This document shows, one piece after another, positions 5,278 to 35,802 of a stretch of 64,000 nt of DNA (within the stretch, counting starts at the first letter, position 1; every line of letters begins with the position of its first letter). The notes under the pieces were generated by a model. It had not been told where the DNA came from. It worked only from the letters and a program-made list of their open reading frames with translations, and made no database searches. The stretch spans positions 124,001 through 188,000 of the forward strand of contig CP089278.1 of assembly GCA_023920165.1 (NCBI GenBank), written 5' to 3'. The position numbers were made by a program, and so were the translations under genes. Source of the DNA: Curvularia clavata (lineage: Eukaryota).

Positions 5278-6612
5278 ATGTTTAATATACAGCGAGAATT
5301 ACCACTTTCCTTCACGCAATCCAATGAAGTATCACCTTCTGCGAATGAAGATAGTCATAACGTGGGGAAGATCACAAGACGATCCCATCAAAAGTCGCGT
5401 GCTGGCTGTAAGCAGTGCAAGACGCGTCGCATCAAGGTATGACATGTCAGAGACCTTGCACAGTCTAAATTATATCATGAGTGTCTGTAAAGCCGCAGTG
5501 TGGTAGTCAGAGATGCAGCAGGTAGTCTGCAGTTCCCCCTAAATGCATTAGCTATTGTAAAAAGAGAAGATCGATCCTAACGTTTATAGTGCGATGAGGC
5601 GAAACCACAGTGTAGCAATTGCAAGCGTCGAAAACTACATTGCGGCTTCACTGAATCAGCAGATTCCTCACCACAAAATTCTAGAGGAAATGAGCCCAGT
5701 TTTGGCTCGATAGAGCTGCCAATATCCGAGATTGAGCTCGCGTACCACTATACAACATCAACATGCTTCTCCCTATCAGCATGGCCCACTGGAGGTATCG
5801 CAGCACGAAATCAAATGGATGAGATAGGGTTCAAACACCCTTATGTCCTGCATCTGATGTTTGCATTTACGGCGCTGCATCTGGCGCACTGTCGTCCGCA
5901 TCGGAGAGAAGAATATGTCGCGACAGCAGACCGTCACTACGAGCGTGCCCTGATTCTACTTACCCCACTGATTTCAAACCTAGATCCCGAAAACTGTGAT
6001 GCAGTCTTGCTTGCTGTGCAGTTGGTCTGCTTTGTAAGTTGGGGTCGGGGTCCACAACCTGGGGAATACCTGGCCTTTGGACGAGATAAGAGGTCAGATT
6101 GGTTGATCCTGTTCCGCGGCATTAGAGCAAGTCGCTCAAGCTTTGAGCGCCTAGAGCACGATAGGAAAAACTCTCCTGCAGCACGCGGGATAGGACGCCC
6201 ATTGCCGACCCAAGAAGTGCCCGACCAGTATGAGCAGCACCTCGACGACCTCAAAGAGCATGTAAAGTTCATGTCAAAGAACACATCTGGTTATGAGAGT
6301 GACGTTCAGGCCGTTGATATTCTCCGAGAGATGTATGACAACCGATATCACGGCACAGATGGTGAGTACCATGTGTCCTTTGGGTGGCTCTACCGGGTGA
6401 CGGATGACTTCCTTGAAAGGCTGCAGCAGCATGACCCCATCCCTATGATCATCTATGCGTATTTCGTGGTGCTAGTTCGTGTTTTGGAACAATTTTGGTA
6501 CATGCAAGGATGGACACATCATATCATGACTGGGATCTGGGAGTTGATGCCTAAAGAGCAAAAAGCCTGGTTAGACTGGCCCATGAAAAGAATAGGGTGG
6601 ATCAAACCTTAA
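5278..6612 (+). CDS. Zn2Cys6 transcription factor (Upc2/Ecm22-like architecture)
   Basis: RRSHQKSRAGCKQCKTRRIK, intron 5437-5589, then CDEAKPQCSNCKRRKLHC. Exon 2 is in frame with the 5815-6612 ORF (HPYVLHLMFAFTALHLA; WLDWP near the end). Confidence 0.88.
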
Positions 6613-7861: not shown

Positions 7862-8796
7862 TCACACTCTGTTCATTTCTGTACTTCTGAGTGGTACATG
7901 GCTGTCATCAATGTTCGACCAAGCCAAGTTGTCAGCCTTCCTGATATATCTGAATAGCCTGCCAGGATGTATTATTGCATAGTACACGGTACTCGCAAGC
8001 AGAAGCGACGCATCGAAGGCGTACATCATCCACTCTGTTTTTAGGATCTGACCATCTGGACCTTGGCTGAATTCAATCAGGCGAAACAAACTCCTTGCAA
8101 TAATCAGAACGCTGACTGTGTACAGCACCAGCATATGCTTCTCCCAGCTCACGTATGGTCTTTTGGAGACAACAGTGGGGCAGCTGCGGATCCTGGTGTG
8201 CAGTACGATGGCTATGAGAAGGAATAATCCAAAGGCAGCCAGCTGGATGCCAAGTCCGATTTTTACGATGAATATCCCTTGCCTGGCTCCATCTGCACCA
8301 CTAGCTTGAGCCGCGGAACCAGCCATCTGGCACCCGAAACTGGCAATGTCGATGATGATATAGATCTTGGAAATCCATGTGGGCCTGATCAGACAGTAGT
8401 CTGCAGCGCCGAGATTGCGAGCTAGTCGGCCGAGCGTCATGTAAATCGTTGCTGCGAGAAGAGGTGCCGATCCGAGGATGAGCATCATTTGGATGAGGTA
8501 AGGAGTTCCGTTGCGAATGTTGTCGTGGGCCCAAGCTCGTCCATAGTAACCAGCAGCTTCACCTGATCGCGCGTTAGAGACTGAACGAATTAAAGATCCT
8601 TTGAATCCTGCTTACCTATGCACCCAAGGACGAAAGGAATAAAGTACCAGCTCCGATACATGATCATAAGAACAACATGTGCTATGGCCATGATCCCAAA
8701 CATGACCATGAATGCGTATCCGGCGCCAATTGAAGGGTTGTATGGAAACAAGTCGAAGTCGGCCTCTCCACGAGGAGCGAGGTGTATTAAAGACAT
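7862..8796 (-). CDS. RTA1-like lipid-translocating exporter (7TM)
   Basis: YNPSIGAG, intron 8615-8563, GEAAGYYGR, APLLAATIYMTLGRL, RSLFRLIEF, EWMMYAFDA. Confidence 0.9.
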
Positions 8797-9250: not shown

Positions 9251-10275
9251 TTATACCGTAAACTTCAACTTATTCTCCTCTGCGTACCCACGGGCGATTC
9301 TCTTCACCTCCTCATCGCCAATTTCTTCAAATATGTCAAAACCCCACCGCGATTGTACATTAAATCTTTTGTGTCTCTCCAATGCCGTCAACTCATCAAA
9401 GATGTCACTTGGCAAAGCCTTTACCTGCATGTTGGTCTTGATCCGGCTCGGTGTGACACTCTTAGGCAATACCACTGTGCCGCGTTGAATGCCCCAACTC
9501 GCGAGAAGTTGGCCGCGGTCCATACCCAATCTATGGCTCAATACACCCACCAACTCGTCATCTACAGTGCGCGGTTCACCAGTCTGATTGTTTCCCAGAG
9601 GAGAATATGCTTCGATAAGAATTCCTTTCTCCTTGCAAAAATCGAAGAGATCCGTTTGCTGAAGGTATGGGTGTGCCTCGATCTGGTTGACAGCCGGGAC
9701 AATCGTGGCCTTGGACAGTAGATCCTTGAGGCGATTGATCGTAAAGTTAGAGACCCCAATTGCCCGGACTTTGCCAGTGCTGAGTAATTTCTCCATAGCC
9801 TTATAGGTGGTAACGGGATCAATCTCTTCAAGATCGAAAGTTCCGTCCTCGCGTAAAGGAAACCATTTACCCTGCTGACCATTAAACGCACTGAGAGATG
9901 TGAGTACATATTAGGGGCTGAGACTAGGCAGCAGACATACACGGGCCAATGCATGAGAAACAGGTCAAGGTATTCAACGCCAAGATCTCGGAGCGACTGG
10001 TCAAGGGCGCCTTCAACATCTTGGGGTGCGTGCTTGGTGTTCCACAACTTTCCAGTCAGAAAGATGTCTGATCGTGGGACACCACTCCGACGAATGCCGT
10101 CCCCAACTTCTGCTTCGTTGCGATAAATGGCGGCGCAGTCGATGTGGCGATAGCCTGCTCTGAGCGCTGTTTCCACAGCCCGCTCTACCTCACCAGGCTT
10201 GGCTTGCCATGTCCCGAAGCCGACTGAAGGTATCTGCGCACCGGTGTTAAGGGTGAAGTATGTGGGTAGAGTCAT
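9251..10275 (-). CDS. Aldo-keto reductase (Gcy1/Ypr1-like)
   Basis: LNTGAQIPSVGFGTW, GYRHIDCAAIY, GKLWN, YLDLFLMHWP, intron 9940-9891, AIGVSNF, AYSPLG, LPKSVTPSRI. Confidence 0.95.
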
Positions 10276-10516
10276 GGCTACTTCAGGGTGATGGCAATCG
10301 AATGATCTGGCCAAAGTAAGGCAGCGCCGTGAAGTTGAAACGATAAGACCAAGAATGTTAACATGGTAGCGTAGTATGCCGTCTGTGTGATATATAGGCT
10401 CATGCTGAATGTTCCTAGGTGACTAGCGTGATTCGCATAAGGGCCGGAAGGGAGCATCTACCTTTTGCCGGTTGCCGAAACCCCGCGGGTGGAATTGCTC
10501 CGCTTCCGACGAGCAA

Positions 10517-10535
10517 GATATCCGAAACGGATATC
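10517..10535. promoter_or_regulatory. Perfect inverted repeat GATATCCG-AAA-CGGATATC in the AKR/TF divergent promoter; candidate Zn2Cys6 site
   Basis: Read directly from sequence. CGG/CCG triplets are the usual Zn2Cys6 half-sites. The same CGGATAT core recurs at 15150-15191. Confidence 0.5.
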
Positions 10536-10572
10536 CTTCTCATTGGCCTATCCTCCTCATCCTCCTACAACA

Positions 10573-12893
10573 ATGTCCTCGAATCGTCCCACGCAGCTGG
10601 CACCAGCGTCAAGAGATTGTATGTTGAAACCAAGTCAGAGCAATCTTTACATAAGAAGCGTTAAGGCCTGACCCAAAATAGCGCACAGCGGCAGTGTAGT
10701 ACCACAGAAGCGAAGCGCCGATGTCGCCCCTGGCAGGCAACGCGTAGTCAAAGTTACGCGAGCTTGCGATATCTGCAAAGCAAGGAAATCAAAGTGCTCG
10801 GGCGGACAGCCATGCGACAGCTGCGTTCGCCGTGGTCTGCACTGCCGCTACGAGGCTGCATACACGAGGGGAAAGACGGCCGTGCCTCGCACCTCCAGCC
10901 CAATTGCTGTCATCAGTGTTCAGGAATCGATCACTTCTTCAACTGCACCACTTATGGTTGATCAATCAAATACCGCTACTCAGCGCGCAAACGATGCGGA
11001 CCCACCATCACGGGCTTCGCCGGGCCTGGAGGTGGCTGGGCAGTTCTCTGATACCACTTCGGGTCTCTCATTTCTTCATCGAGCTTGGCGGCGCATTTCG
11101 AACAAGGAAAGCACACAAGTCGTGACTGGACAGCTTGGGTCAACGGAAGATAGCCAACTTCTGATGAGCGCTGGCGACAAACCTTTTCATCAGACTGGCC
11201 ACATGCAGATGCCATCGCCAGAACGTGGCCGTGCACTTATGGATTTGTACTTTGACGTATGCATTGCAACGTACCGACTACTACACAGGCCAACAGTTGA
11301 GACTTGGCTCATACGTGTGAATGAGAACGCTCAGCTCAATGTGCCCTTGTCCGAAGGTACGTAGTCCTTCAATTCAGTGAGGTGCCCTGTTGATCTTCAA
11401 TCAAGGTATCGGCCGCGCAAAAACAGCAGTAGTGCTTTCGGTATTGGCCGTCGCGGCCTGTCATGAAGAAAAGGCCAACGAATTCATGGCGTCGTCGCCC
11501 GAAAGCGACATGAACTCAGAGCCTCAAAGTGACCTTTATTTTGCTGAGACTGTTCGTTTGACTGCCAGTGAAACGGGCATGCCACAGCTCGAGTCAGCCC
11601 AATGTAGGCTTATCCAGGTCTTGTATCTACTCATGTCTTCTCGCTTTAATCAGGCCTGGTATATCTTTGGCCATGCTCTCCAGATTATCTCAGCCTTGGG
11701 CTTACATCGAAGAGATGATCGCAAGAGGCCTGGATCTGCACCTAAGCGTGATTATATTGACCAACAGTGTAGGAAAAGAACGTTTTGGGTAGCGTATATC
11801 TTGGACAAGTATCTAGGCGTCATCTTTGGGCGTCCTAGACATTACCACGACGACGACATCGACCAGGATTTTCCAGACGCCATCAATGACGAGAACATGT
11901 CCAAAAATGGGCCGCAGAGCCCCAGTTCAGATGACTGTCACATTGAGTCTTTGATACATCATGCGCAGCTTGCCCAGATTGCTGAACGAATCTCACGTGA
12001 AGTATATTCTATCAAGCCAGTAAGCCAGGCCCCCTAGCATCGTTCCAGTAACTTCCTCATTAAATTTGACTCAGATACCTGACCACATCCGCCTCACTGC
12101 CTCTCATCATCTCGGTACTGCCTTGCGTCAGTGGAAGTCTTCCCTGCCTCCGCTTCTAGGATCTATCAATCCTAGTAGTTTGATTCCCACTTTCCGCCGA
12201 CAAGCGATTGCCTTGAGACTTTCATATTGCCATGCGGTCATGCTGGCTCATCGACCTTTTCTTCTCTCGAATACCTCACGCAGCGACGAGGCTATCCGAT
12301 CTCTTGCAAAAGACAGCCTTACTGAGTGCATCGCAGCTGCTCGCTCAGTTCTGGATGCGGTTGACCGCATGGCACGTGAAGGCCGTATGTTTCACGCCTT
12401 TTGGTGGACGCATTACGTCTGCTTTTGCGCCCTAGTCGTAGTATACGTATCGACTATACAGGATACATCCCGAGAGTCGATATCTGCATGTGATCGGCAA
12501 GCGATATTAGACCAAGCAGAAAACTGCCTCCAACACTTAGCGCGCGCTACAGCATCAAATTCACCATCACGGAGATACAGCATCATTCTCCAAGAGTTGC
12601 GTGCTGAAGCCAAGCGAAAGACTGCCGTACCAACGCATGACCATGTCTTAACTTCGTCAGCGACAGCGGTCTCTGGCAATCCAACTACTCTGCATCCGGA
12701 GTTTTTTGGTGAGTCTAATCCGTCCCAACAAACTCTGCAGATGTGGCAACCGCTTTTTGGCAGCCCAATGGATATGACAACACCAGGCTTGCAAGACTTT
12801 TTGGACCACTGGCAGACGACCGACTGGCTTGATCTTGACTCTTCAGCATTTGGTCATTTCACTGGAGGGCAGGAGGAAAGTTTTCTTGGATAA
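10573..12893 (+). CDS. Zn2Cys6 transcription factor with fungal-specific TF (middle homology) domain
   Basis: After the first intron (~10619-10681): ACDICKARKSKCSGGQPCDSCVRRGLHC. Later exons carry LGLHR...RKRTFWVAYILDKYLGVIFGRP and LAHRPFLL. Confidence 0.9.
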
Positions 12894-12980
12894 GTTGTAG
12901 TAGGAAAGATAGTAATCGTCGCTTTGTATGTGATCGTTCGTCGACTGCCTCCCCGAGCCTCTCCCTACTCATGCCTACAT

Positions 12981-14824
12981 CTACAGTGTATATCTAAAAA
13001 GTGGCGACCTATCTCCCATGTCCAAGAGTTCCTCATCCGTATAACGTGCACGGATCTCGTCTTCACCGAGTTTTGACTTCTTCGAGTTCCCCCACTTGTA
13101 TGATAGTTCCAGCAGAAATGCGACGACGAAACCACTGGCGCCAAAGGCGAGCGACAATCCGAATCCCGTATAGTACTTGGGCTTCTCGCTGTCGAGATAC
13201 ATGTAGCTTCCAATAACACCACCAATATTGCCAACGCATATATTAAAAGCAACGCCGATAGCTCGTCGAGAAGATGGGGCAAGGTTGTTTGCTGCCCAAG
13301 AGCTTCCTGCAGGTTGGACTGGGTAGATGCCCATGCATGTTAGTATGATTGCGAAGAATGCTGGTCCGAGGTTGCCACCAAGATCGCCGTGGAAGGAGAT
13401 TATGACTGAGTAGCCAATGAAGATGAGTGCTAAGGGAATCGCTACGAACGGTAAGCGCCAGAAGAAGCGATCCGAGAGTTTTGCGAAGAAGATGGAGCTT
13501 AGCGCTCCAGCAACGTAAGGCGGCACTGTCATCAATTGCGCATTTGTGTTGCTGAATCCCATGCCCTTGGTTATAGTAGGCAATGTAAACTTGGTCCCTT
13601 TGTGCCAGTTAGCACACATAATATCTTTGCGGAAGTGGATGCATACCGTATGAGCAAGCAGAAATACAAAGCAGAATGTATGCCTGCATGTAAAGGCGCC
13701 AGTTGCACAGCACCATTTTTAGATCATTCCAGTTGAACCTTTCCTCATTCTCCTCGCCAGATTTCCCACCATCTTTGATGAATCGTTGAAGCTCGAGGAA
13801 GCGGATTTCGTCGGGTTTCAACCACCGTCCACTCAGTGCAGGAGAGTCGATCAGAAAGAAAAAGCATGATACGCCGAGGCCGACCGTGACAATTCCCTCA
13901 AGCAGGAAAATCCATCTCCAGCTATCTCACAGTTAGCATTTCGTCATCCAATGCAAGGTTGAATACCAGTCTATCATTTTGAGAATGTATTGATTCAGGA
14001 CTTACCCTTCGTATCCACCTATGCCATCCATCTTAGCGATAGCTGCCGCGAGTAGACCACTGAATGCTCCAGACAATGCGGACGCACAATAAAAGTACGA
14101 AATCCTTGTAGCAAGGTCTTTTGGCATATACCAGTAGGAACAGAGGTATACAGCACCTGGGAAGAATCCAGCTCTAAGATCGATTAAGAAACATTCGCAG
14201 TACGCCGTTGCTGCTGACTTACTCGAAAACACCAAGAAGGATCCTTGTTGCCAATAGTCCGGCGAAGTTCTTGACCACACCCATCATTGTCATAATGATA
14301 CCCCAGCAAACTATAAGAATCCCAAGGTAGTACGATGGACGTTTGAACTTCTTAAGTAACATGTTTGATGGAACCTCCAGTAAGATGTAAGGCACGAAGA
14401 AGACGGACAGGACGACGTTCCATTCGACACCATTCAGCCCAAGGTCGGTTACCATCCCCTCTATCTTTGCATTCTGTTCAAAGTCAGTCATAATGTTTGA
14501 ACAGGTCCAACGTTATGCGTACACCAATGTTTGCTCGATCTATATGGGAGATCAAGTAGAGCACAGCTAGCATGGGTACAAGACGAATGTCCACCTGGTT
14601 AAATCAGTACAATGTGATATTCGGCGTGATCGCGGGAACTTTACCTTGCGAATTACGGTTTCCCGCTGTGCTTCAGAGTAGTTGGTGTAAAACTCAGCAT
14701 CCTCAGGTGTAAGTCCTAAGACGTGGAAATTGTCGATCTTGACGATTTGAGGTGTCTTGGAAGGATGAGTGGAATTGGCTGTGTCATCAACGCATTGGAC
14801 CTCATTCTTATCAATAGATACCAT
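12981..14824 (-). CDS. MFS transporter, anion:cation symporter (DAL5/TNA1) family
   Basis: Multi-exon. IDRANIG, EVPSNMLLKKF, RILLGVFEAGFFPGAVYLCSYWY, GYEGWRWIFLLEG, QLMTVPPY, C-terminal DMGDRSPLFRYTL. Confidence 0.92.
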
Positions 14825-15149
14825 GGTGTTGCGTGCACTGAAAAGGTTTTAGTACGATATATGGAGTTGATACAACGACTCCGTCTCAAGAGGGGTGATG
14901 CCTCCTCCAAAATCAGTCATCTTCCATCGCTTTATACACTGTTCTTGGCTAGTTGAATCGAGCAAAAGAACGCCCAATTTGCGGAGAAACGTACAATCCC
15001 GACCATCTGTTTCCTGGAGAAAGCCAAGTGCGGGGAAATGTTGTTCATGCCAATCCTAATTCAGACATAGTGGGCTGATGTTGTGCGCTAAGGGCTTCCG
15101 AGGGCATCGGAACCTTTTCCGTACAAATCAAACGTAGATCCGGCTTTGG

Positions 15150-15191
15150 CGGATATATGCAGCTGTATCCGAACACTATGGACGGATATCC
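15150..15191. promoter_or_regulatory. Cluster of CGGATA(T)/TATCCG half-sites in the MFS/NRPS-like divergent promoter
   Basis: CGGATAT 15150-15156, TATCCG 15166-15171, CGGATATCC 15183-15191. Confidence 0.45.
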
Positions 15192-15294
15192 TCTATTCAC
15201 TTGCGGCGCTGGAAGTACTTGTTCTACAACATTTAACGCATATTGCGGCCACTTCTTTTGTTTTCACTGCTGCCTCTAGAACTCTATCACAGCC

Positions 15295-18200
15295 ATGGCA
15301 CCTGCACAGATTGCTATTGCTGCTTCAATGCCGCCGTCGCGGCCACAGAGCACATGTTTGGACGTTCACAAAACCACACCACCGCAGGATGAGTCTACGA
15401 TACAGACTGTAGACGCTCTTATCCGACACCGCGCGCGTCAACAACCAAACATCACCATTGTCTCATATCCAAAAACTGGAGTCAATTTCGTCGATTACTC
15501 CATGCAACAATTGGACGTTTTCGCCTTCAGGGTGGCCCGACATTATCAAGCATTGATTCCGACGAGAAAAAGCTCGGCAGAAAAGCCTACAACGGTAGCC
15601 CTACTCGGACCAAGCAATTTTGATTATTTAGTTACAATGCTGGCGTTGACCAAACTTGGCCATACGGTGCTATTCCTTTCGACCAGGATTTCTCAAGCTG
15701 CTGTGAACTCCTTGATAGAGACGACAGGTGCTAAATATCTGTTAGCAGACTCGCGACATGCGCGCACAGCTTCTGAAGCTCAAAACCACCTACCTGGCTT
15801 GAACATCGGTGAGATCGCAAGGTCAGATGTTTACGAATTTCCCATCGAAGTTTATGCGGATACCCGCCTAGACTATCAACTCGATCACTCAATCGAATCC
15901 ATGAACAACATCTACATCATCCATTCCAGTGGCAAGTCGAATGAAAGAATTAGCATTACTGTTGCTAATACCAGTTAGGCTCTACCGGACTACCTAAGCC
16001 TATCTACCAGCCTCAAAAAAGCGCAATTGCAAATTATGCTATCAGCATGAACATGAAGGCTTTCATCACGTTACCACTCTATCACAATCATGGTATCTGC
16101 AATTTCTTTCGCGCTATCTACAGTGGAAAATCCATCCACATCTACAATGCCGACCTCCCACTCACTCAACCGCATCTCGCAGCTATCTTGAAGCAGCATG
16201 ACTTTGGGATCTTTTACGGCGTTCCTTATGCTCTTAAGCTTCTTGCAGAGACGGATGAGGGTATTCACCTTTTGAAGCAACTCAAGATCGTCATGTACGG
16301 GGGAAGCGCTTGCCCAGATGCTCTAGGCAATTTGTTAGTAGAAAACGGTATCCACCTCGTGGGCCACTACGGAGCGTAGGTAGTATCGCGACTCATGATC
16401 GTCATATGGGCTGACATGATGAAGAACAGAGGTGGGTCAGCTGATGACTTCTTTCCGGCCCTCGGGGGATACAGCATGGAACTATGTTCGCGAAACCCCA
16501 AAGCTCTCTCCATTCCTCCGATGGCGCCCTTGCGGAAACAATTTGTACGAATGCATAGTCCTACCAGGCTGGCCAGCAAAAGTTGCTTCTAACCTTCCAG
16601 ACGGAAGTTACGCTACCAAAGATCTTTTCGAGCCGCATCCGACCATTGAAAAAGCCTGGAAATACATTGCCCGAGTCGATGATACAATCACATTATTGAA
16701 CGGAGAGAAGTTCAATCCAGTCATGATGGAAGGAACCATTCGCTCGCATCGTGCCGTCACCGAAACTGTCATTTTTGGTTCCAACCGACCCTACCTAGGC
16801 ATGTTGATCGTACCCAAGATTGAGGGAATGTCGCAGTCAGAGCTTGTTGATGAGGTATGGCCTCTTGTCGAAGCAGCAAACAACATAGCAGAAGCATATG
16901 CGAGAATATCCAGGGACATGGTTCGAGTCCTACCATATGGCTGTTCATTTCCCCGTACGGACAAGGGTAGTGTGATTCGACAAGCATTTTACAAGGAGTT
17001 TGCGAACGAAATCGAAGATGCGTACGATGCAGCAGCAACAAAACTTGGAAGTCTCAAAATATACACTGCCTCGGAACTTGAGGACCATATTCGCTCCATT
17101 CTGCACAAGTATCTCCCTTCAGTGCAAGACGTGGATTGCACAACTGACCTTTTCTCATTGGGCGTCGATTCTCTCCAGTCTCTCCAAATCCGAATGGAGA
17201 TCTTGAAAACCGTCAATATCGGAGGCAACAAACTCGGCCAAAATGTCGTTTTTGAATATCCTTCCATCAAATCACTTAGTGCTCATCTTCATCACCTCCG
17301 TACTGGCGAAGAAGAGCAGCAGTCGACTCCGGCTGAACGGATGGAAGACCTTGTCTCCCGATACACTTCATTTGAACGAGTTCAGAAACCGCGACGTATT
17401 GCACTCACTGGTGCTACTGGATCTCTCGGTGCCCACATCCTAGCACAATTAGTTGAGCGTCCAGACGTCGAGACAGTGCATTGCCTGGTGCGCGCTAAGA
17501 CCAATAGCGACGCTATGCAACGTGTTCGGAGATCTCTATTAGATCGAAAGGTTTACCATGAGCTTTCTATATCAGCGCGCAGGAAGATCAGTGCACTGGC
17601 AACGGACCTTTCTGACTCCCACCTGGGTCTCGACAATGCAACATATACGAAAGTCGCTTCAACTCTTACTGGTGTTATTCATTGTGCTTGGAGTGTCAAT
17701 TTCAACAAAAGCTTAACTTCTTTTGAGAAGGACTGTATCGCAGGCGTACGCTACCTTATTGATTTGTGCCTTGCTACGCCTTCACAGATACCTGCTACCT
17801 TTGATTTCTGCTCATCAGTGAGCACTGTCGCACGCTGTCCCGACTTTCATACACCCGAACGACTAGCAGAGTATGGCTGGGCTCAAGAAATGGGATATGC
17901 CCAGGGTAAATGTGTTGCAGAACACATCTGCATGGCTGCTGCAGAGAAGACGGGTATCAATGCTCGGGTGCTACGTGTTGGCCAGATTGTAGCTGACACA
18001 GTACATGGTGTATGGAATGCTACCGAGGCCATTCCTCTTATAATGCAATCTGCGCTTACTATTGGCGCACTACCTAAACTGCAGGAGTCGCCAAGTTGGA
18101 CACCCGTCGACGTGGTTGCCAAAGCAGTGACGGAAGTCTCACTCAGCAATGCGCATTCTGTGATTGCGAATGTCACGAATGCAAAGACCTTTTCTTGGAC

Positions 18201-19044
18201 GGACCAACTCCTTCCCGCTTTACATGATGCGGGCCTTGACTTCGAAGAGATTGAGCCTAAGGAGTGGGTGCAGAAGCTTCGTGCGTCTGATCCAGATGCA
18301 ATAGCCAATCCTTCTATCAAGCTCGTTGATTTCTTTGCATCAAAGTATGAAAAGGACAGCTTCGGCCCTTCGAGAACTTACGAAACAAAAACCGCTCGAT
18401 TGTATTCTCCTTCATTGGATAATGCTCCTGCGCTCAACACAGACTTTGTTAAAACGTTTGTCCGACGATTTCAAGCTACAGCATGGAGTCCAGCTAGTTC
18501 GAATGTCCAACCAAAGAAGCAGCTGGTTGTCTTCATCGGACCTTGTGGGAGCGGCAAATCAACCATAGCAAGACACGTGAGCCGCCACGCCACAGCTTCG
18601 TTTATCGAGGGTGACGATCTTCATACAGTAGATGCCGTAACCACCATGGCTGCGGGAACACCACTCGATGACGGCACACGAATACAGTGGCTTAGTCGAA
18701 TCAAGCAAAGAGTCTTAGATGCCTTCAACACGCTCGGCTGTGATCGTGTCTTCATCTCTTGCTCCGCGCTGAAGAAGTCTTATCGAGACCAACTCCGAGA
18801 CTTCCCTGATAATGACATCAAGGTCACGTTCTTGAACCTTCAGGTCGAGCAAGAGGAACTTGTACGGCGAATGAAAGCACGAAAAGATCATTATATGAAA
18901 CATGACATGGTAGAGAATCAGGTTGCTCTCTGGGAAAGGCCACATAAGACGGAAACAGATGTACTTCCTGTTGACGCTGGGCAAACTGCAGAGGCAGTTT
19001 TAGAAGAGGTGAAATGGCTTCTATACGAATATATGCGCATGTAG
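15295..19044 (+). CDS. NRPS-like carboxylic acid reductase (A-T-R) with C-terminal gluconokinase-like P-loop domain, ~1217 aa
   Basis: Exons 15295-15931, 15979-16375, 16425-19044. A domain: HSSGSTGLPKP, YGATE, TKDLF, RVDD, PRTDKG. T domain: LGVDSL. R domain: TGATGSLG, GYAQGK. Kinase: GPCGSGKST, EGDDLH, CSALKKSYRDQLR, RKDHYM. Confidence 0.92.
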
Positions 19045-31905: not shown

Positions 31906-33740
31906 TTAAATCGGAGGCTTTGCCTCGCCTGGTGCGTAATCTTGTGCGATTCTAACCGCACCCGGGCTTGGCTTTGGCCAACTTGTCCGCTTCTTCGCAC
32001 GCACGTAAAAGTTCATGGGGCGGATGAGTTGGAACTCTGGGTCATATGTGACAGCCTCATCTCCCTCTTTGAAGAACTCGTAACGATATACGAGTTCTGG
32101 TAATAAGACCTTTACCTCACCAAGGGCAAAGTTGAAGCCAATGCAGCTACGGGGGCCGGTACCGAAAGGCATGTATGAGTTCTTGGGTCGGTTGGCAACC
32201 TCTTCGGTTCCCCAGCGGTCTGGGTCAAAGCGATCAGGATTTGACCAGATGTTGGGGTTGTTGTGGATGGCGTGCAGGGCACAAATGACAACGGATCCAG
32301 CGGCAAGCTTGTAGCCGCCTGGTACGATACAGTCTACCTTGACCGTGCGTCCAGGCTGGAAAGAGGGGTTATGAAGACGTTGAGTCTCCTTAACGAACTT
32401 GTCAAGGAAAGTGAGGCCATCAGAGAGTTCTGGCGTCCACTTGGTGTTCTCGCTGACACCAGCATCGACGAGCTCTTGCAGCAGTCGATCCTGGTTACCT
32501 GGGTAGACACACAGTGCATAGATAAGCCATGAAAGAAGAGATGATGTTGTTGTGAAACCAGCACCTGCTATTGGCAGCATGTTGGGGATGACGAGGTCCC
32601 GTGGTAGTTTGTTGCCTTGGTCATCGGTAGCGCGTTTGAGGTAATCTACCACACAACTTGCTCCCAGTGCGGCCGAGTGCAGGGGCAGGTCGTCCTCAGT
32701 ATCTCCTTTCGGCGCCTCGTCTATTGCCTTTGAGATAATGTTCCACAGCTTGGTTCCGACGTGATGGAGATACCAGGGAGCTGTGAAAGGTACGACGCTC
32801 AACTTGGAGTACCATGCGCCACGCGACATGACCTTCTTGTTTAGGGAGAGCGAGTATGCAATCAGGATGACCAATTCGTTCAAAGGTGAGTCGGGAGTAT
32901 CGAAGTGGTGAGCGTCATAACCAAGCGCAAATTTGAAGACCGTTTGGGAAGCAAGCTTCAGCATGTACTGGTAGACATTCCAAGCCTCGCCTTCTTCATC
33001 CAGTTTGTCGAAGACCTTGAAAGTATCCTTGACAGAGGCTTCCATGAGGGGAGTGTAATGCCTGATGGCTTTTGGGGCCATGGAAGGCGGAATGAACTTG
33101 TGCGCTGCCCTCCATGCGTCGGTGTCGGTGTCGCAGATGAACAGCGCTCTGTTGTCCTTGATACCAGCCAAAGGATGGTCCGGTGTGATCAGCTTGCTGA
33201 AAAAGGCGGACTCTTGGAATGCAACAGAGGCAATAGCAGGATCATTGGTCAAGTAGTTCATTTTTCCCATGGTTTCATACTTGATGACAGGTCCATACTT
33301 CTGGAACAAGCGAGCATGATTGCCCTGGCAGACGTTAGATGAGCGAGGAGTGTCAGGATGAGAGTAGACTTACAAGATGGTCGGGAAAGACCTCATAGTA
33401 GCTGCCTACAAAGGGCAGTCCTTCTGGACCAGAAGGATCTCTAATGGCCTCGCCATCAACTGTGATGCCAAGATCCTCTTCGCAGTCCAAAACGGCGTCA
33501 AGGTCTGGCAGGTTCTCTCCCTTGGCATCTTGGAGTGCGATACCTGCGAATAACGAGTTAGCCAATGCACACGGGAACAACAGCGACCAGGGAGGGATAG
33601 TTACCAGTTGGCTGGATGATGTTGTACTGTTCGGCTATGGCGACTTGCAGGGACTCAAAGTCATGGCAGTGGTCGATGTGGATGTCCTGGTGGTAGACAT
33701 TTTTGTCCTGGCCGACCAGGTAGAATCCTTTGACAGTCAT
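31906..33740 (-). CDS. Cytochrome P450 without N-terminal membrane anchor (CYP540-like), ~574 aa
   Basis: Exons 33740-33605, 33543-33374, 33324-31906. AGFTTT, ETQR, PDRW, PFGTGPRSCIG. The family assignment is from recall of the motif pattern. Confidence 0.9.
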
Positions 33741-34385
33741 GGTGTACAATGGTGCGAAGCAGGTGATGGTTGAGTCTGAATGCCCGGCCAAGGCAGCAAT
33801 AAGTCCACGGGGAAGTACCGTAATTTCTCCTTCTCCTTATGCGGCGACCGGTGTGGGATACATTCATATCATCGGCCAAGGAGGCGACTAGCCCGATGAT
33901 ATCACGCTTGGCCACTTGCCAACGCACGAATGCGTTGTTTCAGGCCCTGGAACCGAGGCATCTTGACCGAAAGCGTAGGGATGGTGTCGGTCGTGCGAGG
34001 AGCCCGGCCGAACCCTTTTTCGCAAATTTCCCTGCGTCCAGGGTATGGCAAAGAATTGCGCGTATGCGAAGATTGAGGCTCAAGCGGGCCATGTGGGTCT
34101 GATTAACGGATGTGATCTCAGTGGCTGACGCCCCGACGTGCCTCGGCAAGTGGGGCACCGCGTCTCCACCCGCGACTTTTGATGCAGTCATAGCGCAGTT
34201 AGTTTTTACACACCAACAACGCTTCCTGGGCACCGTGTCCTGTGCATGGGCAAAAGACATGCGGCCGATCCACCGTATTCGTGCGACCCCATGGCGAGGG
34301 GCGTCGCTTTCAACCAAAAGCCCTCGCCGTCGCCGTCTCGTTTCCAGCGGTGAAACGCATCACATCCATCATTCCATCTCGCAAC

Positions 34386-35802
34386 ATGGCCGACGCAGTA
34401 TACTCCCTCGCTGAGGTAGCAAAGCACAACAGCAAGACTGATCTTTGGGTCACTCTCTGGAACTATGTCTACGATGTGACCGAATACCAAGAAGAGCATC
34501 CTGGTGGAAAGGAATTCCTCCTCGAGAACGCTGGAGCCGACGCGACTACCGCTTACGAGGACATTGGCCATTCCACCGACGCAAGAGAGATATTGGAGAA
34601 TTATCGAATCGGACGCCTCGCAGACGACGACTGGACCGACCATGAGGCAAGCAGGATGCCCGTCATCACACCAAGCAAGACCTTTGTAGTAAACAGGCTG
34701 CCTCCGCCCAAGTCAAGTATCGCTCAGTTGCCAACAATGGGACTGGGCTTGGCATCGATAGTACTGACCTATGTATACGGTCACGATGCCATGCCATACC
34801 TGCGTCGTTTTCTCAAAAGTGGCTTCTTGAAGGGCTTCGCAGCCTCGTCACTTGCCACCATGGCTGTAGTCGGATATGCCAGTACGTGGGCCGCGAAGAG
34901 CTTTGATGTCGCACACAAGGACTTCAGGGCATACCCTGCACATTTCAGGGCCAAGTCTACGACGTCAAAAGCCACCAAGAAGAAGGACATCAACCTTGGT
35001 GTTCTTAATGCCCGCATCTACCAGCCTTTCCCGCTCATCGAGAAAACCAACGTTTCCCACGATACCATTCGTTTTGTCTTCGGACTTCCTAGCGAGAACT
35101 CTATTCTCGGATTGCCAACTGGTCAGCATGTGGCAATCCGACATGAGGTTGACGGCAAGCAAATCACTCGATCATACACACCAACATCCAGCAACAAGGA
35201 TCTCGGCCGATTGGAACTGACCATCAAAGTGTACGAGGGGGGCAAACTCACACCCTGGTTGAAACAGCTAAACATTGGAGACAAAGTGGAGATTAGGGGA
35301 CCCAAAGGTGAAATGAAGTACCACAAGAACCTAGTCAAAGAGCTTGGAATGATCGCTGGTGGCACCGGCATTACCCCCATGCTCCAAATCATTCGCCGCA
35401 TCTGCGAAGACCCACGTGACCTCACCAAGGTGACTTTGCTGTATGCCAACAAAACCGAAGACGACATCTTGCTGAAGGACCAACTGGACCAATTTGCCAA
35501 GCAAAACGATCGATTTACCGTGCACTACATCCTCAGCAACCCTTCCACAAGTTGGCAAGGGCTGAAGGGTCGCGTCAGTAAGGAACTCATCGAGAAACAC
35601 ATGCCCGCGCCAGCTGGCATGGACAGCAAAGTTTTATTATGCGGTCCGGACCCAATGGTAGAATCCATGTCCAAGCATCTGCAAGAGCGCGGCTTCAAGG
35701 CGCCAGGTATGTAACCCCTGCTGCAAAACCACTGAAACTACTTACTGACATGATTGACCAGGCTCAATCTCCAAACCCCAAGATGAAATTTTTATCTTTT
35801 AG
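34386..35802 (+). CDS. Cytochrome b5 / NADH-cytochrome b5 reductase fusion protein
   Basis: b5: VYDVTEY..EHPGG, DIGHS. Hydrophobic linker. Reductase: LGLPTGQH, RSYTP, GGTGITPM, CGP. Final intron 35707-35761, ending DEIFIF*. Confidence 0.93.

Follow-up and report, generated by a model that had tools for sequence, protein, structure and literature searches.

What is the function of a four-gene locus in the fungus Curvularia clavata, in which an enzyme resembling a nonribosomal peptide synthetase (NRPS) ends in a gluconokinase? The locus lies at positions 9251-19044 of a 64,000-nt stretch of DNA (contig CP089278.1, 124,001-188,000, forward strand), which was analysed as a whole and is called the window here; coordinates refer to the window unless another locus is named. 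Gene models with short introns were assembled by reading open frames and splice borders. In these models all four genes are intact. They encode an aldo-keto reductase (AKR), a Zn2Cys6 transcription factor (TF), a major facilitator superfamily (MFS) transporter and a large enzyme with adenylation (A), thiolation (T), thioester reductase (R) and kinase domains. An earlier note on this DNA had read the locus as a pathway of uptake, acid reduction, aldehyde reduction and phosphorylation, and had named no substrate. The evidence now points to aldaric acids as the substrate class. In our judgement the chance is about even that the four genes constitute a self-contained module for the catabolism of an aldaric (hexaric) acid, be it galactarate, D-glucarate or both. 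The more specific scheme is put forward tentatively, as a possibility somewhat short of even: an ascomycete route of reductive aldarate breakdown, driven by ATP and NADPH, in which a carrier-dependent reductase, a dedicated AKR and a fused gluconokinase would lead to a 6-phospho-aldonate.

The large gene matches the Pfam families AMP-binding, AMP-binding_C_3, PP-binding and NAD_binding_4. The adenylation domain scored 146 bits against PF23562, the carrier domain 35.8 bits against PF00550 and the reductase domain 150.3 bits against PF07993 (cut-off 20.1); the reductase domain also reached 194 bits against TIGR01746, just below the cut-off of 213.35. In an alignment of 17 family members, the adenylation core-motif residues, the phosphopantetheine-attachment serine of the carrier, the nucleotide-binding glycines and the Tyr/Lys pair of the reductase, and the P-loop and further blocks of the kinase are invariant. 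As far as sequence can tell, the A, T and R domains with these core residues bear out the proposed acid reduction. The C-terminal kinase is of the GntK/IdnK type: it scored 158.6 bits against TIGR01313 (curated cut-off 113.75) and aligned with residues 9-165 of the 175 residues of E. coli GntK (1knq) at 91.6 bits. On these matches the domain is a GntK-type gluconokinase and not a generic kinase; it may phosphorylate D-gluconate at C6 and would supply the phosphorylation step of the earlier note. When the exon-3 part of the enzyme was scanned, neither the Lys2 equivalog model TIGR03443 (136.2 bits, cut-off 1030.1) nor the equivalog model of the bacterial carboxylic acid reductases (CARs), NF041592 (67.1 bits, cut-off 1300), was reached. 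Since both cut-offs were missed, the A-T-R part is regarded as a lineage separate from Lys2 and bacterial CARs.

The family is large, with 1128 proteins at E <= 0.001 among 8000 candidates scored. Its named members come from Dothideomycetes, Sordariomycetes, Leotiomycetes and Eurotiomycetes at 45-80% identity, and the automatic names within the family are mostly "gluconokinase", "male sterility protein" and "NRPS-like protein biosynthetic cluster". Over the region searched, the protein of the window is 100% identical to a 1216-aa Curvularia clavata protein listed at NCBI (P0001). Our model reads the first intron (15932-15978) as GC-AG and the second (16376-16424) as GT-AG. The deposited model appears to splice at a GT three bases upstream of the GC (15929-15978). 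Through the use of this GT the deposited protein would lack a glycine of the third adenylation core motif, a residue present in at least 90% of the 17 family members.

The link to aldaric acids comes from Aspergillus niger, which catabolises galactaric acid by an undefined route (Kuivanen et al. 2016, PMC5153877). Deletion of 39114, an AMP-synthetase/aminoadipate-reductase-like gene (3246 bp, chr_701), abolished the use of galactarate in A. niger, and deletion of the AKR gene 1090836 (chr_502) or of the FAD-oxidoreductase gene 1121140 lowered it (PMC5153877). Both 39114 and AKR 1090836 were induced several thousand-fold on galactarate, and carboxyl reduction of galactarate by 39114 was already proposed by the authors (PMC5153877). 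A second locus is contained in the supplement to that paper. The AMP-synthetase gene 1082594 (3794 bp, chr_202) rose on galactaric acid from 0.016 to 50.5 and 60.4 fragments per kilobase per million mapped reads (FPKM), a 3063-fold induction, and forms the fourth row of the induction-sorted sheet; the Ga and Gl columns, the labels of which are undefined in the text, show little or no induction (PMC5153877 supplement). Around it on chr_202, the same four gene families are found within 14 kb (PMC5153877 supplementary table). MFS and TF genes stand tail to tail there, 156 bp apart, the same convergent pair as in the window. This locus appears in the supplementary table only; the text of PMC5153877 contains no occurrence of 1082594, of the chr_202 AKR 1082229 or of the word "kinase".

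The table equates 1082594 with the older ID 170633 (PMC5153877 supplement). The protein EHA27189.1 ("ASPNIDRAFT_170633", 1234 aa) belongs to the kinase-bearing family, and shares a 90% cluster with a 1243-aa A. niger protein that has AMP-binding, carrier, reductase and P-loop kinase domains. EHA27189.1 is 46% identical to the window protein from end to end, and 38.6% identical in the kinase domain. Induction of this A. niger counterpart by galactaric acid as carbon source, together with flanks free of tailoring enzymes, argues for the nutrient use that the earlier note had preferred to toxin synthesis.

The gene 39114 could be assigned to a protein from the two open reading frame (ORF) primers and the guide-RNA protospacer by which it is identified (PMC5153877 supplementary file 2). 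All three oligonucleotides translate, in the expected orientation, to hexapeptides of a 1048-aa A. niger protein of the An11g05500 type, and among 518 proteins compared these hexapeptides were restricted to An11g05500-type relatives from Aspergillus and Paecilomyces. Because of this match, the essential galactarate gene is taken to encode an A-T-R enzyme lacking the kinase. The 39114 protein is 46% identical to the A-T-R part of the window enzyme over 1053 aa. Two further galactarate-responsive sites were noticed in the same data. The small unannotated gene 1139058 (older 39113; chr_701 1416026-1416467), just upstream of 39114 on the other strand, went from rlog2 1.45 to 10.87 and 7.39 (PMC5153877 supplement). 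On chr_601 (1336852-1344216), the MFS gene 1220612 and the Zn2Cys6 TF gene 1125622, 3 kb apart, rose from 0.24 to 108.6 and 1284.6 FPKM and from 0.085 to 63.9 and 185.4 FPKM, respectively (PMC5153877 supplement).

The A-T-R parts of 63 proteins were put into a tree (IQ-TREE, LG+G4 with quick search, 1008 columns) to examine how the three enzymes are related. The window enzyme, 170633 and 39114 fall into one clade of 51 rows (SH-aLRT 94), in which four subclades form a polytomy. One kinase-bearing subclade unites Pleosporales and Sordariomycetes and includes the window enzyme (SH-aLRT 100); another, of Eurotiomycetes and Capnodiales-type fungi, also kinase-bearing, includes A. niger 170633 (SH-aLRT 100). 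The third is rich in Leotiomycetes and kinase-bearing, with two kinase-less rows nested in it, and the fourth consists of 18 kinase-less rows including 39114 (SH-aLRT 99). By subclade and by architecture, the window enzyme does not come out as the orthologue of 39114, and that it works like 39114 is a conclusion we infer. The rows directly outside the 51-row clade are kinase-less, which implies one or a few gains of the kinase fusion and repeated losses. The Pleosporales enzymes group with those of Sordariomycetes (support 100), and Aureobasidium, Hortaea, Elsinoe and Elasticomyces with Eurotiomycetes (support 100). Such a grouping is at odds with the species tree and points to old paralogy or to transfer.

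Residues beside the adenylation core motifs are identical in the alignment between the window enzyme and 39114. These are His-Asn-His in core motif 4, a Tyr within the conserved block that follows, and, on either side of core motif 5, a His immediately before it and Gln-Leu immediately after it. In the A. niger kinase-bearing enzyme, the Asn at one of these positions is replaced by Ala, and seven outgroup rows differ at several of them (gap or Gly; Arg or Phe; Phe). Going by GrsA numbering, these positions presumably line the substrate pocket. Their polar, His-rich make-up would fit a polyhydroxy acid.

The partner genes are of the kinds expected for such a pathway by the earlier note. Both AKR exons match PF00248 (Aldo_ket_red) with 77.0 and 75.9 bits (cut-off 24), and the best solved relatives are 8yp2/8yp9 (Magnaporthe MGG_00097, Gcy1-like), the plant AKR4C enzymes and the aldehyde reductase AKR1A. 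The Gcy1-like Magnaporthe enzyme is the closest of these, which is consistent with a predicted role in aldehyde reduction. In the transporter, three exons matched MFS_1; because each scan covered a fragment, the individual scores stay under the cut-off for the whole protein. All four exons tested are collinear with TIGR00893 (TC 2.A.1.14; 51.8, 24.2, 25.4 and 19.0 bits) and sum to about 120 bits, which, as a piecewise score, stays below the cut-off of 395. Dal5, Tna1 and relatives of GudP, GarP and DgoT are members of this anion:cation symporter family, and the collinearity is compatible with the importer type assigned to the transporter earlier. A PDB sequence search with two MFS exons gave no match, and no intron-free MFS copy was found in the one related locus in which it was sought (L001).

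The TF combines Zn_clus (36.5 bits) and Fungal_trans (113.2 bits) domains in Pfam. In 25 of the 120 matches listed for the kinase-less Aspergillus clade, Zn_clus and Fungal_trans stand ahead of A-T-R in one protein. These joined models (P0128, P0421-P0443 and others) come from Aspergillus and Talaromyces, have about 1780 aa, and may be true fusions or merged annotations of adjacent genes on the same strand. In all eight joined models tested, the TF part matches the window TF with 34-37% identity across about 600-670 aa. On this likeness, the regulator is common to the module of the window and the kinase-less Aspergillus relatives.

Conservation of the neighbourhood was followed in a metagenome scan with the 17-member family alignment, in which the best 80 of the 96 stretches encoding a relative were used. 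Loci were searched with the four spliced window proteins and merged at 97% identity or more in the enzyme gene; partners were counted as present at a minimum identity of 50% for AKR, 45% for MFS and 30% for TF, each over at least 60% of the length. This yielded 68 distinct loci, 19 with the kinase, 21 without it though the contig continues, and 28 cut by the contig end. In the 8 kinase-bearing loci whose upstream flank reached 6 kb or more, AKR was present in 7, TF in 7, MFS in 5 and all three in 4. The corresponding numbers in kinase-less loci with the same flank (n = 11) were 3, 6, 2 and 2. The AKR is the most constant neighbour of the kinase-bearing enzyme (7 of 8 evaluable contigs), and its copies are 62-85% identical in loci in which the big enzyme is 46-71% identical. 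The exact order and orientation of the window are kept in the closest relatives (enzyme 66-72% identical, enough upstream flank); in more distant relatives the order is shuffled and the genes are kept. A divergent MFS/enzyme pair, with the MFS less than 800 bp from the A-T-R start and a spacer of 478-723 bp, was found in 7/13 evaluable kinase-bearing, 2/17 kinase-less and 4/17 cut loci.

Beyond the four genes, the surroundings change. The 62 flanking ORFs of 12 loci showed no general recurrence and no recurrent tailoring enzyme; a PF04199 cyclase and a FrsA-like esterase occurred twice only, in two loci each. Because the outer genes vary between loci, the four genes are considered a conserved unit, and because the same neighbours recur in unrelated contigs and in A. 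niger, their arrangement is more than chance. Co-location of AKR, TF and MFS with the fused enzyme in other genomes, the synteny on which the earlier note staked its reading, was thus found. In two unrelated loci (L039 13752-14564 and L053 6203-6826), the gene of the PF04199 "putative cyclase" comes immediately after that of the kinase-bearing enzyme, in opposite orientation, and the FrsA-like esterase is found upstream of the AKR (L021 and L027); both could be lactone- or ester-opening accessories.

Taken as a pathway, the module would work as follows. The MFS transporter of the anion:cation symporter type would import the diacid. The A domain would adenylate one carboxylate and load it onto the carrier, from which the R domain with NADPH would free the aldehyde, a uronate. 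The AKR would convert the uronate aldehyde to a primary alcohol, giving an aldonate, and the fused gluconokinase domain would phosphorylate the new primary alcohol. For D-glucarate this would lead via L-guluronate and D-gluconate to 6-phosphogluconate and the pentose-phosphate pathway, and for galactarate to galactonate 6-phosphate. The order of A-T-R, AKR and kinase is deduced from the chemistry: an aldarate has no primary alcohol, so the gluconokinase can only act last. Since kinase-less clusters exist, the kinase must act on the free product, and action on an enzyme-bound intermediate is ruled out by the same clusters; in those clusters a kinase could be supplied in trans.

The Zn2Cys6 factor would drive both divergent promoters. 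The two promoters have one 11-base word in common, and motifs are concentrated in them. The window contains 11 matches to a 7-base CGG-type half-site (4.9 +/- 2.1 expected; 1/100 shuffles reaches 11), and 4 of the 11 are inside the 767 bp of both promoters (binomial P = 6.4e-6). An 8-base motif has 2 of its 7 window matches in the MFS/A-T-R promoter (P = 1.1e-3). Both its strand and its place (-259 to -406) are conserved in 12/36 loci examined, at 0.74 per kb against 0.10 per kb overall, and it falls within the best-conserved blocks of an alignment of 8 MFS/A-T-R promoters. The half-site recurs in the relatives L003, L067 and L058. The promoter motifs are candidate sites for the Zn2Cys6 factor of the cluster; the half-site is not claimed as the TF site itself, because it is not kept in several close relatives. 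The alignment of AKR/TF promoters contains a CGG-rich block in relatives, but is too weak to be read. A regulator belonging to the module, as suggested earlier, is supported by the TF in 7 of 8 contigs, by the TF family common to the kinase-less Aspergillus relatives and by the concentration of promoter motifs.

Several observations weigh against an aldarate module of this kind. To our knowledge, there is no onward route for 6-phosphogalactonate, and enzyme activity is on record for no member of the family. The kinase was lost cleanly in one relative with intact AKR, TF and MFS genes (L003, 68% identical) and in at least two other lineages; in L003 (13100-14300) the frame ends at the linker before the kinase, and no kinase remnant was detected in any frame or by tblastn (E <= 10). 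MFS is missing from 3/8 and AKR from 1/8 of the evaluable kinase-bearing loci, and the A-T-R promoters of L002, L006, L061, L062 and L064 lack the 7-base half-site. The tree, with its polytomy, does not place the clade of the window with either 170633 or 39114. In crude extract of yeast expressing 39114, no activity on galactarate was found, and the cofactors named were NAD(P)(H), not ATP (PMC5153877). Deletion of 39114 fully blocked galactarate use despite the presence of the kinase-bearing gene (PMC5153877), and therefore the 170633 enzyme cannot substitute for it. It may act on another substrate or at another step, or may be expressed too weakly (about 50-60 compared with about 5000 FPKM). 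Finally, the co-regulation anticipated in the earlier note stands for half of the cluster: in the published RNA-seq the A-T-R-kinase and AKR genes of chr_202 are induced by galactarate, and the MFS and TF genes are not.

Some of these points would also fit a catabolic module for another carboxylate, be it a uronic, aldonic or keto-aldonic acid, a later aldarate intermediate, tartrate or a non-sugar acid. We regard this as unlikely, though it deserves serious consideration. The gluconokinase domain would then serve gluconate from another route. The uncompensated loss of 39114 in the presence of a kinase-bearing paralogue speaks for it (PMC5153877), as does the slight rise of 1082594 in the "Gl05h" column (6.96, compared with 3.69 at Ga00h; labels undefined; PMC5153877 supplement), and the fungal D-glucuronate route includes a 5-keto-D-gluconate reductase step according to the accessible part of PMC5814732. 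Galactaric acid is nevertheless the strongest inducer on record. The Asn to Ala difference sets the A. niger kinase-bearing enzyme apart from 39114 and the window at one presumed pocket position, but the window enzyme has its presumed pocket residues in common with 39114, on which galactarate use depends genetically. In addition, a monocarboxylic sugar acid would be reduced to an aldose, with no obvious use for a gluconokinase.

A cryptic secondary-metabolite cluster, the label given by genome-mining tools, with the NRPS-like enzyme as the source of an aldehyde or alcohol natural product and the MFS transporter as its exporter, is improbable. Annotation favours it: many database names read "NRPS-like protein biosynthetic cluster", An11g05500 is a predicted cluster backbone (PMC3689640), and the accessible part of PMC4073137 gives the A. 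flavus counterpart as the "A-T-R-gntK" backbone of SMURF cluster 18, nearly silent on potato dextrose agar (0.0-0.3 reads per kilobase per million, RPKM). However, a backbone-type enzyme is present without recurrent tailoring enzymes, none being found in or beside the module or recurring in 12 related loci. The family is spread over four fungal classes at 45-80% identity, unlike lineage-restricted metabolite clusters, its A. niger gene is induced about 3000-fold by a carbon source, a close member (39114) is required for catabolism, and the transporter is probably of the importer-rich anion:cation symporter type. That the four genes are mere neighbours without a common function is hardly credible. 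The lack of induction of MFS and TF on chr_202 would fit it, as would the fact that few fungal gene families are as common as AKRs, MFS transporters and Zn2Cys6 factors. Against it, AKR, TF and MFS genes of high similarity recur despite changed order and orientation and varying other neighbours, and the divergent MFS/A-T-R promoter of 470-720 bp is kept in 13 distinct loci.

The features of the module are collected in Table 1. The two divergent distances and the tail-to-tail spacing reported in the earlier note are exact in our gene models.

Table 1. Coordinates of the window module, its enzyme domains and promoter motifs, and of the partner genes on A. niger chr_202 (rlog2 series on galactarate from the PMC5153877 supplement)
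Feature	Position	Strand	Description
AKR gene	9251-10275	-	exons 9251-9890, 9941-10275; 324 aa; PF00248 on both exons
AKR/TF divergent promoter	10276-10572		297 bp
7-base half-sites, AKR/TF promoter	10518-10524, 10528-10534	opposite strands	inverted repeat, 3-base spacer
Zn2Cys6 TF gene	10573-12893	+	exons 10573-10618, 10682-11356, 11406-12019, 12075-12893; 717 aa
TF/MFS tail-to-tail spacer	12894-12980		87 bp between stop codons
MFS transporter gene	12981-14824	-	six exons; 520 aa; MFS_1; putative anion:cation symporter type
MFS/A-T-R divergent promoter	14825-15294		470 bp
8-base motif, MFS/A-T-R promoter	14981-14988, 15030-15037		two copies
7-base half-sites, MFS/A-T-R promoter	15150-15156, 15183-15189		motif matches
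A-T-R-gluconokinase gene	15295-19044	+	exons 15295-15931, 15979-16375, 16425-19044; 1217 aa
Adenylation domain	15424-17034	+	split by two introns; PF00501 on exons 1 and 2; PF23562 at exon-3 frame residues 86-204
Thiolation (carrier) domain	17089-17289	+	PF00550; exon-3 frame residues 223-289
Thioester reductase domain	17398-18474	+	PF07993
GntK/IdnK-type gluconokinase domain	18529-19011	+	TIGR01313
A. niger AKR 1082229	chr_202 3706296-3707333		rlog2 3.71, 7.89, 8.70
A. niger MFS 1207097	chr_202 3709951-3711700		rlog2 7.96, 8.76, 8.79
A. niger Zn2Cys6 TF 1207101	chr_202 3711857-3714263		flat, rlog2 8.07 to 8.17

The module is flanked by an RTA1-like gene, a second Zn2Cys6 fragment, an S28 peptidase and a subtilase, and no tailoring enzyme was found within the module or its flanks in the window. 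The second Zn2Cys6-type frame (5590-6612; Fungal_trans_2, weak Zn_clus) lies 2.6 kb past the AKR, with the RTA1-like gene (7862-8611) between them; neither recurred in the related loci. About 13 kb downstream of the module (31906-35714) are a P450 gene and a cytochrome-b5/FAD reductase gene. The same Pfam families occur about 3.5 kb downstream in a 79%-identical relative (L058, 12371-16216). In the window, a subtilase, a second MFS, PAH/ULD-domain genes and a carboxylesterase lie between the module and this pair, and the difference in distance suggests an insertion or rearrangement in the window.

The literature searched, which comprised neither bioRxiv supplements nor subscription journals, contained no function for the kinase-fused enzyme, no conserved four-gene module, no mention of the galactarate induction of the chr_202 locus of A. 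niger and none of the kinship between the kinase-fused enzyme and 39114. The A-T-R-gntK domain order itself was tabulated in 2014 for a predicted secondary-metabolite cluster of A. flavus, as the accessible part of PMC4073137 states. In its accessible part, a 2025 review presents fungal galactarate breakdown through gene knock-outs only. The breakdown of galactaric (mucic) acid by fungi has been unexplained since A. niger was seen to consume the acid that it is engineered to make; T. reesei reportedly does not consume galactarate. If the reductive aldarate route is real, the module would represent the missing fungal galactarate pathway, and its large enzyme would be the first of the NRPS type to have a sugar-acid kinase fused to it and a defined role in metabolism. 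A CAR-type reductase with a fused kinase would have been recruited into a sugar-acid catabolic cluster; this would not be a new principle. With importer, carboxylate reductase, aldehyde reductase, kinase and regulator, the module offers a complete, testable scheme, and it draws attention to a second, overlooked locus of A. niger that responds to galactarate. A cluster that is widely conserved and goes by the name of "NRPS-like biosynthetic cluster" would move from secondary to primary metabolism, which affects genome-mining counts, and the enzymes could interconvert aldaric, uronic and aldonic acids from pectin waste.

Among known systems, CARs and Lys2 resemble the window enzyme in having A, T and R domains, and thus belong to the class that adenylates an acid, holds it as a carrier thioester and releases an aldehyde with NADPH; the window enzyme differs in its additional kinase domain. 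That domain keeps the P-loop and all conserved blocks of E. coli GntK (1knq), but is the C-terminal part of a 1217-aa enzyme. According to the accessible part of bioRxiv 10.1101/559534, the fungal glycine betaine reductase ATRR is likewise an NRPS-like A-T-R enzyme of primary metabolism, with two reductase domains, no kinase and another substrate class. A. flavus AFLA_054270 has the same domain order and a TF listed in its cluster, but in the accessible part of PMC4073137 it is filed as a secondary-metabolite backbone of undefined product and is not connected with sugar acids; the same family includes, in the 90% cluster of P0309, proteins of 1245-1251 aa from A. flavus. The chr_202 locus of A. 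niger has the A-T-R-gluconokinase domain order and the four gene families in common with the window, in another order and orientation and with two or three small unnamed genes interspersed. The galactarate gene 39114 encodes an A-T-R enzyme of the same family clade that is likewise partnered with an AKR; it has 1048 aa, no kinase and its AKR on another chromosome, whereas in Curvularia clavata a kinase-fused enzyme and its AKR are held in a tight four-gene module.

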